A stretch of DNA of 46,547 nt from Patescibacteria group bacterium (GCA_049322655.1 JBMORP010000006.1:79863-126409); one strand, 5' to 3'. Counted from the stretch's first letter, positions 3,919 to 11,228 are shown. Numbers and translations are program-made. The notes: a model not told the origin generated them from the letters alone.

Positions 3919-3937
3919 AGTACTAGGAAAAACAACA

Positions 3938-6772
3938 ATGAAAAAACAATATAATTTCAAACAAACTCCAGACCTACCAAAGTTAGAAGAGGAAGTTTTA
4001 AAGTTTTGGGAAGAAAACAATACTTTTCAACGATCGATAGATCAACGAGATAAAAATAATGCTTATGTTTTTTTTGATGGACCACCTTTTGCCACCGGTC
4101 TACCTCACTATGGTCATATTGTTGCTAGTACGATGAAAGATATTGTACCTCGTTACTGGACCATGAAAGGTAAAAGAGTTGAACGCAAATGGGGTTGGGA
4201 TTGTCATGGTTTACCAATCGAAAACATCGCTGAAAAAGAGCTGGGAATTAAACGTAAAAAAGAGATTGAAGAGTTAGGGGTTGAGAAATTTAATGAGATT
4301 TGTCGATCCAAGGTTTTGTCTTATGTTGATGATTGGAAAAAAATCATTGCTCGTTTGGGCCGTTGGGCTGATATGGAAAACGACTATAAAACCATGGATT
4401 TGAGTTTTATGGAATCTGTTTGGTGGGTGTTTAAGCAACTTTATGATAATGATTTGGTTTATGAGGATTATCGTAGTTTGCATATTTGTCCTCGTTGTGA
4501 AACCACTCTTTCTCAATCAGAAGTAGCAGAAGGTTATAAAAATGTTAAAGACATTTCAGTCACAGCTGAGTTTAAGATTAAAGATTTTTCAAAGTTTCAT
4601 CATGGTGAAGAACAAGTCTTCTTTTTAGCTTGGACTACTACTCCTTGGACATTGCCAGGAAACTTTTTATTGGCAGTGGGGCCGGCAATAAATTATGTGC
4701 TAGTTAGGGGTAATGAAGATGGTAAATTATATGTGTTAGCAGAAACAAGATTGGCAGCAGTATTTGGTGAAGAAGATGACCATGAAATAGTGGCTAGTTA
4801 TCAAGGTCAAGAGTTAGAAGGTTTAAGTTATGAACCTTTATTTCCTTATTTTAAAGACACGGAAAATGCTTTCAGGGTAGTGGCGGCTGAGTTTGTAGCA
4901 ACTGAAGAAGGAACTGGGATTGTTCATATTGCTCCAGGTTTTGGTGAAGATGATTTTCGAGTTGGACAAAAAGAGGGCGTGAAACTAATTCAGCACGTTA
5001 ATATGGATGGCCGATTTATCGAAGCAGTTACTGATTTTCCAGATATGGAAGTTAAACCCAAGGAAGATCCTCAGCGGACTGATATTGAAATCATTCGTTA
5101 CTTGGCAAAAAAAGATTTGTTGTTTAGTAAGAAGAAACTTGAACATAGTTATCCTCATTGTTGGCGGTGTGATACCCCGCTACTCAACTATGCTACCGGT
5201 AGCTGGTTTGTGAATGTAAATAAAATTCACGAAAAATTACTCAAATTAGCTGATGATATTAATTGGTTCCCAGAGCATATTAAACAGGGACGTTGGGGAA
5301 ATTGGTTAGCCGGAGCTCGTGATTGGTCGATTAGTCGACAACGTTATTGGGCCAGTGTGATTCCAGTTTGGCGCTGTGAATGTGGGCAAACAAAAGTTTA
5401 TGGTAGTGTTAAGGATCTAGAACAAGATAGTGGTCAAAAAATAACAGATCTTCATAAACATACAGTTGATAAAATCACTGTCCCTTGTAGTTGTGGTCGA
5501 CAGATGAGACGTATCCCCGATGTATTAGATACTTGGTTTGATAGTGGTTCTATGCCATATGGTCAGGCTCATTATCCTTTTGAAAATAAACAAGAATTTG
5601 AAAACAATTTTCCAGCCGAGTTTATTGGAGAGGGAGTTGATCAAACTAGAGCTTGGTTCTATTACTTGCATGTAATTGCCGGAGGGATCAGAGAAACCAA
5701 AGCTTTCAAAAATGTGATTGTTAATGGGATTGTTTTGGCTGAAGATGGTAAGAAAATGAGTAAACGTTTGCAAAATTATCCTGATCCTGTTTTGCTAATT
5801 GATAATTATGGTACTGATAGTTTGAGAATGTATTTAGCTAGTTCCCCAGTGTTAAAAGCAGAAAATCTTAATTTTAGTGAAAAAGAAGTGGCCGATATTC
5901 GTCGTAAAACCTTTGTGATTTGGTGGAACATCATTGGCTTTTACAAAAGTTTTGTCAAAGATGAGGTTATTACTCGACCAGCTAGTCGACCAGTTCATCT
6001 TTTAGATCAGTGGTTATTGAGCAAAATGCAAACTGTGATCGAACAGGTGACTAAATATTTAGATGGCTATGATTTGGTCAGAGCTAGCAGAATTTTGTTG
6101 GATTTTGTTAACGAACTTTCCACTTGGTATCTTCGTTTGAGCAGAGACAGACTAAAAGAAGGTAATGATTCAGCTGCCGAACAGGTGTTTGGCTATGTGC
6201 TTTATACTCTGGCTCAACTTTTTGCTCCATTTGCTCCTTTTTTTGCTGAAATGGTTCATCATGCGTTAGTTGATGAGCAAACCTCAATTCATCTCACTGA
6301 TTGGCCAGGTTTTGACTCAGCTTTGCAGGATAGAGAGCTAGAGGAACAAATGAGTTTGGTTCAGAAAATCATTGAAGTAGGTCACTCAGCTAGAAAACAA
6401 CAGGGAGTTAGGTTGAGACAACCACTATCCCTAGTAACTGTGCGGTTGGCCAAAGAAACTAAGAGTGATGTGTTAGGTAAATTCACCGAATTAATAAAAG
6501 CAGAACTTAATGTTAAAAGCGTAAATTGGACAATTGCCTCTGATGATCAGTTAGTTGTTGAATTTTCTTGGGAGTTAACAGCTGAACTCAAGGCTGAAGG
6601 TGAAGCTAGAGAAATCATGAGAACGATTCAGAATTTACGCCGTCAAGCTGGTTTATCAATAAGTGAACAAGCTGTTGTTAGTTTGCCTGATTGGCCAGCT
6701 GTTTGGCAAAATGAAATCGAGACTAAAACCTCAACAAAACTAGTGAAAGGTGATAGAGTTGAGTTACAATGA
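3938..6772 (+). CDS. ileS: Isoleucine-tRNA ligase, type 2 (eukaryote/archaea-like, mupirocin-insensitive class)
   Basis: FFDGPPFATGLPHYGH, GWDCHGLPIE, WTTTPWTLP editing motif, GTGIVHIAPGFG, DWSISRQRYW, GKKMSKRLQNYPDP. Confidence 0.97.
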   Translation: MKKQYNFKQTPDLPKLEEEVLKFWEENNTFQRSIDQRDKNNAYVFFDGPPFATGLPHYGHIVASTMKDIVPRYWTMKGKRVERKWGWDCHGLPIENIAEKELGIKRKKEIEELGVEKFNEICRSKVLSYVDDWKKIIARLGRWADMENDYKTMDLSFMESVWWVFKQLYDNDLVYEDYRSLHICPRCETTLSQSEVAEGYKNVKDISVTAEFKIKDFSKFHHGEEQVFFLAWTTTPWTLPGNFLLAVGPAINYVLVRGNEDGKLYVLAETRLAAVFGEEDDHEIVASYQGQELEGLSYEPLFPYFKDTENAFRVVAAEFVATEEGTGIVHIAPGFGEDDFRVGQKEGVKLIQHVNMDGRFIEAVTDFPDMEVKPKEDPQRTDIEIIRYLAKKDLLFSKKKLEHSYPHCWRCDTPLLNYATGSWFVNVNKIHEKLLKLADDINWFPEHIKQGRWGNWLAGARDWSISRQRYWASVIPVWRCECGQTKVYGSVKDLEQDSGQKITDLHKHTVDKITVPCSCGRQMRRIPDVLDTWFDSGSMPYGQAHYPFENKQEFENNFPAEFIGEGVDQTRAWFYYLHVIAGGIRETKAFKNVIVNGIVLAEDGKKMSKRLQNYPDPVLLIDNYGTDSLRMYLASSPVLKAENLNFSEKEVADIRRKTFVIWWNIIGFYKSFVKDEVITRPASRPVHLLDQWLLSKMQTVIEQVTKYLDGYDLVRASRILLDFVNELSTWYLRLSRDRLKEGNDSAAEQVFGYVLYTLAQLFAPFAPFFAEMVHHALVDEQTSIHLTDWPGFDSALQDRELEEQMSLVQKIIEVGHSARKQQGVRLRQPLSLVTVRLAKETKSDVLGKFTELIKAELNVKSVNWTIASDDQLVVEFSWELTAELKAEGEAREIMRTIQNLRRQAGLSISEQAVVSLPDWPAVWQNEIETKTSTKLVKGDRVELQ

Positions 6773-7865: not shown

Positions 7866-8183
7866 ATGTCTAAATATGCAGTTATTCAATTATTAGGTAA
7901 GCAACATCAAGTTACTGAGGGAGAAACCATTGTGGTTGATTCAGTTCCTCAAGAAGAAGGTCAAAAATTCGATGTGACTGATGTGTTGTTGGTAGTAGAT
8001 GGAGATAAGATCTCTGTTGGTCAACCAACCGTGGAAAAAGCAAAGGTTACATTGAGCGTAGTAGCTCAAGGGAAAGGCGACAAGATCCGTGTGGCTAAAT
8101 ACAAGTCCAAATCTCGTTATCGTAAGACCATGGGTCATCGTCAGCTTCAATCCACCCTCAAAGTTGAAAAAATCACTGCCTAA
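7866..8183 (+). CDS. rplU: 50S ribosomal protein L21
   Basis: YAVIQLLGKQHQVTEGETIVVD, KYKSKSRYRKTMGHRQ. The start is better placed at ATG 7866 than at the ORF-track start 7836. Confidence 0.95.
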   Translation: MSKYAVIQLLGKQHQVTEGETIVVDSVPQEEGQKFDVTDVLLVVDGDKISVGQPTVEKAKVTLSVVAQGKGDKIRVAKYKSKSRYRKTMGHRQLQSTLKVEKITA

Positions 8184-9316
8184 TGCAGTATTTACTCCAG
8201 CTTGGTAATACCCCTACTCTTTCAGTTGCTGAAGCCAAACAAGTGATTGGTGATAGTGTAGAACAACTTGATCAACATTTGGCTAAATTTGTATGTGATA
8301 CTGACGAAGAAGCAATTAAGTTATTTGAAAAACTTGGTGCCTCGATTCGGTTAATTAAACTCACTCAAGAAACTCAGCCTTTAGCTGATAAAACAATTGA
8401 AGAATTTTTGGCAGCATATCTAATCAGGTTAAATCAAGCTAAATTTAAGTTAGCTTGCGCGCAACTAGGTGATGAACAAACCGAGAGATTGGATTTTTAT
8501 CAGCTTAAACAACTACTTGAAGCTCAAAACATTAAAGTTCGCTTTGTTGAGGGTTCTCGTTTTGGCTTATCTGCTGCCGTTCTACTCCACCAAAAAATCG
8601 AAGAATTTGTTATTTATCAATTAGAAGATCAAGTGGCTATCGGTGAAACTATTGCGATTCAAAATATTGATCATTGGACAGACAAAGATAGAGCTAAACC
8701 TTATGCAGATCGTAAAAAAGGAATGTTGCCTCCCAAACTTGCCAGGGCGATGGTTAACTTAGCTATTGGGAACAAAACCAGTGGTTTAGTTTATGACCCT
8801 TTTTGTGGCACTGGAACTGTTTTAATAGAGGCTTTAGAGCTTGGTTTAGATGTGGTGGGAAGTGACTTAGATCAGCAAGCAGTGATTGGGGCTACAACCA
8901 ATTTAGCTTGGTTTAAGGATAAAGAACAACTAGCTGGCTCATTTGCGGTTTTTCATGCTGACGTGAGTCAAGTGAAACAGGATAGATTTAAGCAAAAAGT
9001 TGATTATTTAGTTACAGAACCATTTTTGGGTAAACCAAAACCAAAAATCGAACAGTTACCAGATATTTTTAAAGGTTTAGAAAAACTTTATCTAGGTGCA
9101 TTCAAACAGTGGAAGCAATTGCTTAATAATGGTAGTAAGTTAGTAGTGATTTTTCCCAGAGTTGAAACTGGTAAAAATGTTTTTGATCTCTCTGGTTTAA
9201 TTGACAAATTGTCTGGTCAAGGCTATACTCTTCTGGTTAATTTTGGTGAGCTAAGATATCACCGAAAAGACGCCGTGGTACAAAGAGATATTTTAATTTT
9301 TGAGTATCATCATTAG
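8183..9316 (+). CDS. Trm11/UPF0020-like class I SAM-dependent RNA amino-methyltransferase
   Basis: GMLPPKLARAMVNL, VYDPFCGTGTVLIEA, GSDLD, motif IV-like VTEPFLG. Start overlaps the rplU stop (TAATG). Confidence 0.8.
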   Translation: MQYLLQLGNTPTLSVAEAKQVIGDSVEQLDQHLAKFVCDTDEEAIKLFEKLGASIRLIKLTQETQPLADKTIEEFLAAYLIRLNQAKFKLACAQLGDEQTERLDFYQLKQLLEAQNIKVRFVEGSRFGLSAAVLLHQKIEEFVIYQLEDQVAIGETIAIQNIDHWTDKDRAKPYADRKKGMLPPKLARAMVNLAIGNKTSGLVYDPFCGTGTVLIEALELGLDVVGSDLDQQAVIGATTNLAWFKDKEQLAGSFAVFHADVSQVKQDRFKQKVDYLVTEPFLGKPKPKIEQLPDIFKGLEKLYLGAFKQWKQLLNNGSKLVVIFPRVETGKNVFDLSGLIDKLSGQGYTLLVNFGELRYHRKDAVVQRDILIFEYHH

Positions 9317-9340
9317 AATTTACATAAGGAGAAATTAATT

Positions 9341-9598
9341 ATGGCACACGTTAAAGGTTCAGGTAGTGTAACTCAACACAAACAAGGTAAAAGACATGGT
9401 AGAAGATTTGGTTTGAAGAAATCAGGTGGTCAAGCAGTCAAAGTTGGACAGATTATTGTTCGACAAAAGGGTGCTAAATATAAGTCTGGTAAAGGGACAA
9501 AAATGGGTAAGGATTACACCATTTTTTCCATGATTGATGGTGTGGTTGATTTTGGTAAAAGACTAGGCAAAACTGTAGTTAGAGTTGCTACTAAATAA
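9341..9598 (+). CDS. rpmA: 50S ribosomal protein L27 (no N-terminal Prp-cleaved extension)
   Basis: MAHVKGSGS, GLKKSGGQAVKVGQIIVRQKG, GKDYTIFSMIDGVVDF. SD AAGGAG upstream. Confidence 0.95.
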   Translation: MAHVKGSGSVTQHKQGKRHGRRFGLKKSGGQAVKVGQIIVRQKGAKYKSGKGTKMGKDYTIFSMIDGVVDFGKRLGKTVVRVATK

Positions 9599-9619
9599 AC
9601 ATCTATTTAATTGAAAGTG

Positions 9620-9649
9620 AAAAGCCGGACATTGCTGCCCGGCTTTTTT
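9620..9649. terminator. Bidirectional intrinsic terminator
   Basis: AAAAGCCGG-(10 nt)-CCGGCTTTTTT between convergent rpmA and the small minus-strand ORF. Confidence 0.85.
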
Positions 9650-9661
9650 AGTGCTCACTTG

Positions 9662-9793
9662 TCAGTGGTCTTCATCGTCTTCACAGGTACATTCTGCGAG
9701 TGTTTCGAAACATGTAGAACAGAGGAGAAATCCACATTTTGCACATGAATATCCTCCATTCTCTTGCCTCGGCACATGGACACAATCAGTCAA
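9662..9793 (-). CDS. 43-aa Cys-rich microprotein, putative zinc finger (not in the ORF track)
   Basis: TTG start, MTDCVHVPRQENGGYSCAKCGFLLCSTCFETLAECTCEDDEDH*. SD AAGGAGGTGA at 9808-9799, promoter upstream, terminator downstream. Confidence 0.75.
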   Translation of the reverse strand: MTDCVHVPRQENGGYSCAKCGFLLCSTCFETLAECTCEDDEDH

Positions 9794-9890
9794 GAAACTC
9801 ACCTCCTTCTTTTTACAGATTTTGAGAGCGTTTCCTTAACAATCTCCATAACTACCAATTGCAGAGACTTAAATTATTAAGGAAGAAGTT

Positions 9891-9919
9891 ATTATATCTT
9901 AAAAATCTCATATAATCAA
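9891..9919 (-). promoter_or_regulatory. sigma70 promoter for the microprotein gene
   Basis: TTGATT (9919-9914), 17-nt spacer, TATAAT (9896-9891). Confidence 0.7.
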
Positions 9920-11134
9920 TATTATGGGACTTTTTTTTCTTTTACTTAGTTTATAAATTCCAGCACTGAGGAGAATACTAGCGAGAATAAAAACGCCAAC
10001 ATAAGCATTAAACTCACCTATTTTATTATTTTCGGCAAACCTACCAGCCACCACTGCCAATAAAACATAAGGGATTTTACTGATCAAAGCCAAGGCAGAT
10101 AAAGTGGTTGCCCTATACTTTGACTCAATCTCTTTGTTTACGACCACAGAAATCCACGGATAAACTAGATAACCACTTAGTTCAATCATTAAGATACTAA
10201 CCAAACCCAACCAGCCAGCAAAATAGTAACTAGATAGATAGCCTAAGCCCAAAAGAACAGTAAGCAAATACAAACCTTTTTTATCAGAAATTTTTTTCCT
10301 TAACCAAGGAACTGCAAGTACAATGGTGGCGCCAATCATATAAAGAATAGTAAAGATTTGTGATTGTTCAAAAGGTGAAAAACCAAAAGTTTGCAGCATG
10401 GTTAATTTGAGAAAACCAAAATCATAGAGGTAGTAACCCCCTACTAAAGAAAAAATTACAACACTGTAAGCTAAAAGGCTTTTTTTAAATAAAGCCAAAG
10501 TACCAGTTTTTAGTTGTTGCCAATAATTAAGCCAAGAAAACTTGTCACTATCAATCTTTGGTTCTATTAGACGTAGAGCCATCAGGAAAGAAACGGCATA
10601 AGTTAATCCCCAAGCAACAGTTGGTAGTCTGAAGTGCCATTCATAAAGGTAGCCGCCGACAAAGACAGCGATAATCGTGATCCAACTAGCCAAAGAGCTT
10701 CCATGGCTAACTACTTTTTCGTATTCATCTGCTCGGTTTTTTTCTAGTAAAGTGTCATAAACCAGGGCTTCAACCGCTCCAGAATTTAGTGCCCAGCCAA
10801 TTAAGAGAAAAAGTTGTGCAAAAAAGAAAGTTGAGACATGACTAGCCTGTGACATTAACATAATACTGATAAAGGCAGTTCCAGTTCCCAGAACAATTGT
10901 TTTCTTTTTACCAAATAAATCAGAGATAGCTCCTGATGGTATTTCCATTAATAAACCGGCTCCAAAAGTTAAAGCATCGATGATGGCTAGTTGGTTGTAA
11001 TCCATGAATTTTAGCCAAAAAAAGAGCCAATTAGCAGATAGAAACCAAAAATTAGTAAAAACAACTAATAAGTAATAAAACTTAATATTATTTAAGTCAC
11101 TAGCTGGTAATAGATTTTTTAGTTTTTGGATCAT
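9908..11134 (-). CDS. MFS transporter
   Basis: About 12 hydrophobic segments, EIPSGAISDLFGKK (MFS motif A region), LNSGAVEALVYD, ESKYRAT. Likely start is ATG 11134 (ORF track extends to 11191). Confidence 0.85.
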   Translation of the reverse strand: MIQKLKNLLPASDLNNIKFYYLLVVFTNFWFLSANWLFFWLKFMDYNQLAIIDALTFGAGLLMEIPSGAISDLFGKKKTIVLGTGTAFISIMLMSQASHVSTFFFAQLFLLIGWALNSGAVEALVYDTLLEKNRADEYEKVVSHGSSLASWITIIAVFVGGYLYEWHFRLPTVAWGLTYAVSFLMALRLIEPKIDSDKFSWLNYWQQLKTGTLALFKKSLLAYSVVIFSLVGGYYLYDFGFLKLTMLQTFGFSPFEQSQIFTILYMIGATIVLAVPWLRKKISDKKGLYLLTVLLGLGYLSSYYFAGWLGLVSILMIELSGYLVYPWISVVVNKEIESKYRATTLSALALISKIPYVLLAVVAGRFAENNKIGEFNAYVGVFILASILLSAGIYKLSKRKKSPIILII

Positions 11135-11228
11135 CAAAATATAGTGGTTATTATATTGGTTTTTAAGAGGAATTGTCCGTGAAAAAAACACTGTGAAAAA
11201 TATAACAATCTATGTTACATTGGAGACT

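Follow-up and report, generated by a model that had tools for sequence, protein, structure and literature searches.

A conserved cysteine-rich microprotein gene in a strain-variable slot beside rpmA of Patescibacteria

The window, that is, the whole 46,547-nt stretch of Patescibacteria DNA that was analyzed, carries on its minus strand a short gene situated between rpmA (9341..9598, plus strand) on one side and a gene for an MFS transporter (9908..11191, minus strand) on the other, with parB, a PBP gene, rsmH and mraZ beyond the latter. A sequence-only reading had proposed that the open reading frame at 9793..9662 encodes an unannotated microprotein with its own expression signals. The translation obtained here agrees, giving (M)TDCVHVPRQENGGYSCAKCGFLLCSTCFETLAECTCEDDEDH, 43 aa, from a TTG start to a TGA stop; the gene and its product are referred to below as type A. 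Homologs of the neighboring genes bear the names Candidatus Pacebacteria (Microgenomates) or Patescibacteria, in keeping with the CPR origin that the sequence-only reading had assumed. The window's own type A protein is absent from a collection of 5.8 billion proteins, in which its ortholog is named "hypothetical protein". The locus comprises the following features:

9662..9793, minus strand: type A coding sequence, an acidic microprotein with seven Cys and one His; TTG start at 9793..9791, stop at 9664..9662.
9799..9808, minus strand: Shine-Dalgarno (SD) sequence AAGGAGGTGA; 8 nt separate GGAGG from the TTG; invariant in three orthologous loci.
9832..9884, minus strand: 5' leader stem-loop of 53 nt, where the transcript is predicted to begin; -19.8 kcal/mol, z -4.65, with 0 of 200 shuffles as stable.
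9891..9919, minus strand: sigma-70-type promoter, -35 TTGATT at 9919..9914, 17-nt spacer, -10 TATAAT at 9896..9891; 10 of 12 matches.
9612..9647, both strands: intrinsic terminator hairpin with flanking A and T tracts, common to the microprotein gene (minus) and the convergent rpmA (plus).
9653..9932, minus strand: variable cassette of 280 nt, made up of promoter, leader, coding sequence and 9 nt past the stop; present, absent or replaced as a block in relatives.

Across lineages, the neighbors are rplU, a Trm11-like methyltransferase (MTase) gene, rpmA, the MFS gene, parB, the PBP gene, rsmH and mraZ, and this context offers no functional clue to type A. The MTase of the window (7869-9598) is a Trm11/RlmKL-like SAM methyltransferase of 377 aa that matches PF01170 and PF01555, and its placement between rplU and rpmA is kept across more than 1200 Patescibacteria homologs. 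In Firmicutes, the position between rplU and rpmA is held by ysxB, the gene for the L27 protease; the L27 of the window has no N-terminal extension. At gathering thresholds, Rfam returned no family, tRNA included, anywhere in the 46.5 kb (window 1-46547).

Relatives of type A were sought by a word-indexed search of 5.8 billion proteins, an exhaustive HMMER scan of 1.84 billion representatives, and scans of contigs. The first of these matched a single cluster, P0001 (42 aa, 81% identical, on contigs of up to 609 kb), which corresponds to the locus L001, and the HMMER scan returned P0001 and P0002 only. The latter was rejected as spurious: it is a 373-aa translation of a DNA repeat, in which "LCSTCF" was matched four times. 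A scan of species-representative genomes added one locus, L010, in which the protein is 93% identical (90% over the best tblastn segment), and a scan of metagenome contigs brought in L011, the 609-kb contig that belongs to the P0001 lineage. Both of these scans used two narrow peptide patterns, which could miss distant uncalled relatives, and the search was therefore extended by a synteny walk via the neighboring MTase. L010 (CAYSQA010000006.1) is titled "uncultured Pseudomonadales bacterium" and is syntenic with the window, with proteins 89-100% identical; to judge by its sequence, the Pseudomonadales label looks wrong.

Where does the coding sequence begin? Mechanically, the longest ORF in the type A frame starts at GTG 9802 and spans 46 aa. 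This start was rejected in favor of TTG 9793, because the GTG sits within the SD sequence and the ATG of an ortholog aligns with the TTG. Indeed, the start codon occupies the same aligned position in all three lineages, as TTG in two and ATG in the third. The encoded peptide has a pI of about 4.2 and a net charge of about -7, and lacks both a signal sequence and a transmembrane segment. Its ligand pattern had been given as C4-x-H6 ... C17xxC20-x4-C25xxC28-x6-C35xC37, which is correct for the peptide as translated here. All seven Cys codons of the window ORF are TGT, as had also been pointed out; this usage is not kept in the relatives, which have TGC at four of the seven positions.

The signals for expression were found where the sequence-only reading had placed them. 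A promoter scan returned TTGATT-17-TATAAT at 9919..9891, the SD sequence lies at 9808..9799, and the A-tract of the terminator starts 13 nt past the type A stop, with the hairpin at 9647..9620. Promoter-like matches as such are no commoner in the window than in shuffled sequence (2 found, 2.9 expected). Promoters with 10 of 12 matches occur at the aligned position in L001 (TTGACT-16-TATACT) and L010 (TTGATT-16-TATAAT). At all three type A loci, the leader folds as a stem-loop of 50-60 nt (z -4.65, -5.22 and -4.59) that begins about 7 nt past the -10, at the predicted transcription start. When the hairpins were aligned, 95% of the cells were paired and three pairs had compensatory changes, a result that 94 of 500 shuffles equaled and that, with n = 3 sequences, is not significant alone. 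The ompA, ermC and aprE leaders contain 5'-terminal stem-loops that serve mRNA stability, and by analogy the type A leader stem-loop probably stabilizes its mRNA. A 16-codon upstream ORF in the leader was rejected, as its frame is not kept in relatives. The terminator hairpin folds at -18.7 kcal/mol (z -4.1) on the minus strand and at -17.2 kcal/mol (z -2.7) on the plus strand; a simple terminator scan missed it because its U-run is interrupted. Its equivalent in L001 is a clean bidirectional terminator, which the scanner flagged on both strands.

Transcripts of the L001 ortholog are represented in two independent seawater samples, where metatranscriptome contigs cover 3933-4143 and 3991-4231, both 100% identical, over an ORF at 4001-4129. 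No other RNA contigs fall within L001:3600-4600 in these two metatranscriptomes, in which the parB stretch is bare, as is rpmA apart from its last 32 nt. This argues that the small type A RNA is more abundant than the neighboring ribosomal-protein mRNA, with the proviso that the RNA contigs are those of the ortholog, are unstranded, and have ends that are perhaps assembly-graph branch points. The window's own sequence had no match in the RNA runs searched. From the conserved signals and the RNA contigs over the ortholog, type A would form a self-contained transcription unit, consisting of a sigma-70 promoter, a 5' stem-loop, a strong SD sequence, a TTG start and the terminator that rpmA also uses.

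Is the product of this unit a protein? Cys density was discarded as evidence, since seven Cys in 43 residues arise in 35 of 100 shuffles (35%) of the window read in six frames. (The other Cys-rich frames of the window are off-frame, within a large membrane-protein gene.) With both the promoter-like matches and the Cys density at chance level, the case rests on conservation in relatives. All seven Cys and His6 are invariant in the three orthologs (window, L001/P0001 and L010). Differences at codon positions 1, 2 and 3 number 4/1/20, 1/0/7 and 3/1/16 in the three ortholog pairs. Between the window and L001, pN is 0.074 versus a pS of 0.79 in the Cys frame, with the pattern reversed in the other two frames; between the window and L010, the values are 0.011 and 0.29. 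Indels in the acidic tail are of whole codons (EDDEDH, EDHDDDEYH and DDEDD). In two activated-sludge runs, a strain was found that has 30 differences over the 1227 nt around the locus and none in the 132-nt ORF. Compared between the window and L001, type A is 81% identical at the protein level, which is close to the figure for L27, L21 and ParB (85-86%) and above those for the MTase (70%), FtsW (75%) and the PBP (76%).

The sequence-only reading had held that this is a genuine small protein, had named Cys conservation and dN/dS as checks on it, and had added that frame-disrupting changes in close relatives would speak against it. The claim is borne out. Both orthologs (93% and 81% identical) keep all eight putative ligands, no frame-disrupting change occurs among the three sequences, with all indels multiples of three, and purifying selection on the peptide is accompanied by a promoter, SD sequence and terminator kept in three lineages and by RNA over the ortholog. 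Type A is a real protein-coding gene for a very acidic peptide of 43 residues. A conserved small RNA or a chance ORF would be compatible with the Cys density and promoter-like motifs, which are within chance, and with the conserved leader hairpin. On the other hand, codon periodicity and a pN far below pS are seen in the type A frame only, the start codon switches in frame, the indels come in threes, and there is no Rfam match. A non-protein origin is thus scarcely conceivable, being effectively refuted by the codon-position and pN/pS result.

How stable is the gene within its clade? Walking the homologs of the adjacent Trm11-like MTase allowed the states of the slot between parB/MFS and the rpmA terminator to be compared:

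Window and L010: MFS gene and type A.
L001: type A, without the MFS gene.
L013, L017, L020 and L021/L022: an unrelated protein of 54-63 aa, type B, with the pattern CPGxCGG...WLQCSQ...H.
L012: MFS gene and about 150 nt of unrelated AT-rich DNA.
L016: MFS gene and a Cys-free ORF of about 115 aa.
L018: MFS gene only.
L019 (MTase 95% identical): a contig that breaks off shortly after the terminator, ahead of which lies something other than the type A tail.
L014 and L015: nothing.

In a contig about 90% identical to the window, from a subsurface metagenome (run X5), the 280 nt between 9652 and 9933 give way to 59 different letters. The homology of the window to L012, L016 and L019 ends at the same two breakpoints, and these three, whether the slot is empty or holds something else, show no remnant of type A. 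The clearest exchange is that between L001 (type A) and L017 (type B), whose flanks agree at about 90-91% of positions over 2.1 kb in either direction and which differ only from L001 3892 to 4143; the swapped segment extends from just past the common -35 to just before the common terminator. On the MTase tree, two separated subclades have type A, at least two have type B, and the slot differs between sister taxa. These sequences cannot be explained without at least one recombinational replacement. The divergence of type A (78% at the nucleotide level) equals that of the flanking genes (72-81%), so that type A would be old rather than recently spread. Judged by these genome comparisons, the type A gene is dispensable and strain-variable.

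Several further observations concern the borders and occupants of the slot. The last seven codons of the MFS gene (SPIILII*, window 9908-9932) lie inside the variable cassette and carry the -35 of the microgene promoter, and the MFS C-termini of relatives diverge past a common KRKK motif. The third occupant, the Cys-free ORF of about 115 aa (L016:4468-4820, minus strand; MHEVEGKWEHDPFWGG...), has a start that overlaps the end of the MFS gene and has no Pfam match; in a low-depth contig of run X5, a similar ORF (MHEEIEGKW) begins at the window 9933 breakpoint. In run X6, the sequence of another strain ceases to match the window at 9649/9650 and is unrelated from there on (TGGTATTTCCTATAGAAAAACTTG...), which may represent a further slot variant. 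Upstream of parB, the heptamer TTTTCAC occurs twice in the same orientation, with about 14 nt from one copy to the other (L001:3820-3850, with equivalents in L013, L014, L015, L017 and L021). This pair is kept in all lineages, including those free of a small gene, and resembles half a parS site or some other operator; it could be a binding site for ParB or another regulator.

Type B genes (L013:5485-5649, minus; L017:2165-2356, minus; L020:1768-1956, plus; L021:4501-4680, minus; proteins P0123-P0127) encode peptides of 54-71 aa with a conserved D.CPG.CGG.L...WLQCSQ.(P).H and a single C-x3-C ... C-x5-H site, and form only four clusters among the 5.8 billion proteins. The predicted structure is a helix and a zinc-ribbon hairpin (pLDDT 86.8), for which no significant structural neighbor was found in the PDB. 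Like type A, type B occupies the slot between parB and the rpmA terminator, has a promoter, a leader with a conserved hairpin and a strong SD sequence, encodes a Cys/His protein and is confined to the same Pacebacteria clade. Unlike type A, it has a single metal site and a confidently predicted fold. Homology between the two was considered and rejected, the hhalign probability being 0.2%.

It is tempting to see in this slot an exchangeable "microgene socket" of the Pacebacteria clade, in which recombination between lineages exchanges unrelated and mutually exclusive metal-finger cassettes (A and B), and now and then a 115-aa ORF or an empty state. A and B might then be functional alternatives for the same cellular or host-interaction target, maintained as a long-lived polymorphism, in the manner of alternative immunity, anti-defense or partner-recognition alleles, in bacteria with an episymbiotic way of life. 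This is speculative, and we consider it unlikely in its full form. Were A and B indeed functional alternatives, the locus could mark a variable interaction surface of episymbionts.

What kind of protein is type A? Its eight ligands, C4, H6, C17, C20, C25, C28, C35 and C37, would suit two tetrahedral metal sites, most likely for Zn(II). At 81% overall identity, 23 of the 27 non-ligand residues of the core are identical; with only three orthologs, conservation does not separate ligands from other residues. The three aromatics Y15, F22 and F29 are invariant. No known family among the databases searched includes type A, as far as its sequence tells. In Pfam-A, hmmscan at E<=10 found only C1_2 (E=0.0014-0.013, 16.3-19.3 bits against a gathering cut-off of 26) and DUF4637 (E=0.009-0.014, 15.6-16.2 bits against 27), both below cut-off, and the L010 ortholog, whose core differs at residue 2 only, matched neither. 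NCBIfam gave nothing significant. Among defense and phage families, PADLOC had no match and the best PHROGs hit had E=0.36, and no type A relatives were found in IMG/VR or among GenBank phages. A profile search of the PDB produced matches at the level of single knuckles only (MsrB1, E=0.028; YfgJ, 0.52; zf-HIT, 2.6; PML B-box1, 3.5), in which the YsCakCGf segment matches classical zinc knuckles. The AlphaFold2 model from the three-sequence alignment is too poor to test a cross-brace (mean pLDDT 56.6, pTM 0.27), and Foldseek with this low-pLDDT model had no match below E=8.

The sequence-only reading had called the peptide B-box-like. B-boxes have the ligand pattern C-x2-C ... C-x2-C-x4-C-x2-C/H ... 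H ... H. The central CxxC-x4-CxxC of type A, with a spacer of about 10 residues ahead of it, does fit B-box type 1 (PF00643; PML B-box1, PDB 2mvw), with which type A also shares a set of eight ligands for two Zn, its own metal binding being predicted. This much of the claim stands. The rest does not: only the two central pairs fit, the outer ones being CxH and CxC; zf-B_box is not matched at E<=10; no profile or sequence match is significant; and type A is bacterial and stand-alone. The B-box likeness of the sequence is thus a partial motif resemblance only. Could type A nevertheless be a true cross-brace member of the B-box (or RING or C1) type, a bacterial homolog of the eukaryotic domain? 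Apart from the spacing, such a relationship could draw on the hits to PML B-box1, zf-HIT, C1_2 and DUF4637. However, all of these are weak, the Pfam ones lie below their cut-offs and vanish with the L010 ortholog, PML B-box1 appears amid equally weak matches to unrelated zinc knuckles, and HMMER over 1.84 billion proteins yielded the ortholog alone, besides the spurious P0002. True membership is therefore very improbable.

The same knuckles also invite comparison with small redox or iron proteins, such as a rubredoxin- or desulforedoxin-like Fe(Cys)4 protein or an Fe-S carrier in an anaerobic fermenter. Type A is acidic, of about 45 aa, and has a Y-x-C-x-x-C-G-F knuckle, which the first knuckle of rubredoxin resembles; its C20-x4-C25-x2-C28 has the CX4CX2C spacing of plant-type [2Fe-2S] ferredoxins. 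However, Pfam rubredoxin (PF00301) and ferredoxin models are not matched at E<=10, the second knuckle follows 4 residues past the first, as against about 29 in rubredoxin, and no redox partner genes adjoin. This makes a redox role quite improbable. Small size, richness in Cys and residence in a hypervariable slot that other small genes take in other lineages would be expected also of a RiPP or bacteriocin precursor, that is, a modified or secreted Cys-rich peptide. Type A, however, lacks a signal or leader-like region, has a strongly acidic tail, and is conserved over its whole length rather than in a core alone; its neighborhood in the three lineages contains neither a maturase nor a protease, ABC exporter or immunity gene. 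The earlier judgment that a RiPP precursor is less likely, for want of a maturase in the neighborhood, thus holds, and we would call such an origin highly unlikely.

The main alternative is a metallothionein-like buffer or chaperone, in which the thiolates of the Cys7His peptide would sequester Zn, Cd or Cu(I) as a cluster; its gene would be an accessory one for metal tolerance that strains gain or lose. The bacterial metallothioneins SmtA/BmtA (PF02069) and MymT are likewise small and Cys-rich, with a His ligand and CxC or CxxC motifs. Cys makes up 16% of the residues of type A, in CxC, CxH and CxxC motifs, and the gene is accessory, being present or absent among wastewater, bioreactor, subsurface and marine strains. 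However, type A matches neither PF02069 in Pfam nor any model in NCBIfam. Its non-Cys residues are nearly as conserved as the Cys, and it keeps three aromatics and a hydrophobic mini-core, which to our knowledge the classical metallothioneins lack. Its eight ligands would fit two discrete, isolated tetrahedral sites, not a cluster. Moreover, no metal-responsive regulator or transporter is linked to the gene, L001 keeping the microgene without the MFS gene. Such a role therefore seems rather unlikely.

On balance, it appears probable that type A is an acidic microprotein with two metals (probably Zn), dispensable to the cell yet abundantly transcribed, which acts through a partner that it binds. 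With two tetrahedral metal ions, Zn(II) being the likeliest, bound by the eight invariant ligands, the peptide would form a compact mini-domain of two knuckles, in which V5, V7, Y15, F22, L24, F29 and L32 make up a small hydrophobic core; the acidic tail beyond it, which varies in length, would be disordered. The protein would thus be a non-essential zinc-finger micro-protein, presumably a small regulator that binds a cellular partner, either protein or nucleic acid. Such a partner-binding regulator is to be preferred over a housekeeping factor or a passive metal sponge; a simple sponge is disfavored because the non-ligand residues are near-invariant, the aromatics are kept, and the ligand count fits two discrete sites.

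Why should so small a gene matter? Small proteins are systematically missed in annotation, and the genomes of CPR/Patescibacteria are tiny, so that a conserved, abundantly transcribed gene of unassigned function is of consequence for the workings of these cells. With its 43 residues, the peptide is within reach of chemical synthesis and of a size suited to metal titration and NMR. The locus also provides a clear case of non-homologous microgene replacement between flanks that are about 90% identical, and the slot is a tractable system in which to study the gain, exchange and loss of orphan microproteins in reduced genomes.

The closest counterparts to type A are the one-domain zinc-finger micro-proteins of haloarchaea, namely the C(P)XCG mu-proteins of Haloferax volcanii (HVO_0758 and HVO_2753) and Brz of Halobacterium salinarum (PMC10716476, PMC11241148, PMC6562870, PMC2253796). 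As portrayed in these reports, they are, like type A, stand-alone proteins of <70 aa with Cys knuckles and a small transcription unit of their own, often acidic, non-essential, either regulatory or partner-less so far, and often missed by annotation. Some of the predicted zinc fingers among the haloarchaeal C(P)XCG micro-proteins are reported to bind no zinc (PMC11241148). By the definition of the C(P)XCG group given there (PMC11241148), type A falls outside it, having one CxxCG (C17-A-K-C-G21) and CSTC-F as its second knuckle. Unlike the haloarchaeal proteins, type A is bacterial (CPR), shares no detectable sequence homology with them, packs eight ligands for two putative metals into 34 residues with CxH and CxC ends, and resides in a strain-variable cassette. 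The kind is thus already known, that of stand-alone prokaryotic zinc-finger micro-proteins, and type A is, by its sequence, a very narrow new family of that kind; what is new here is its location, in a slot whose microgene varies from strain to strain.
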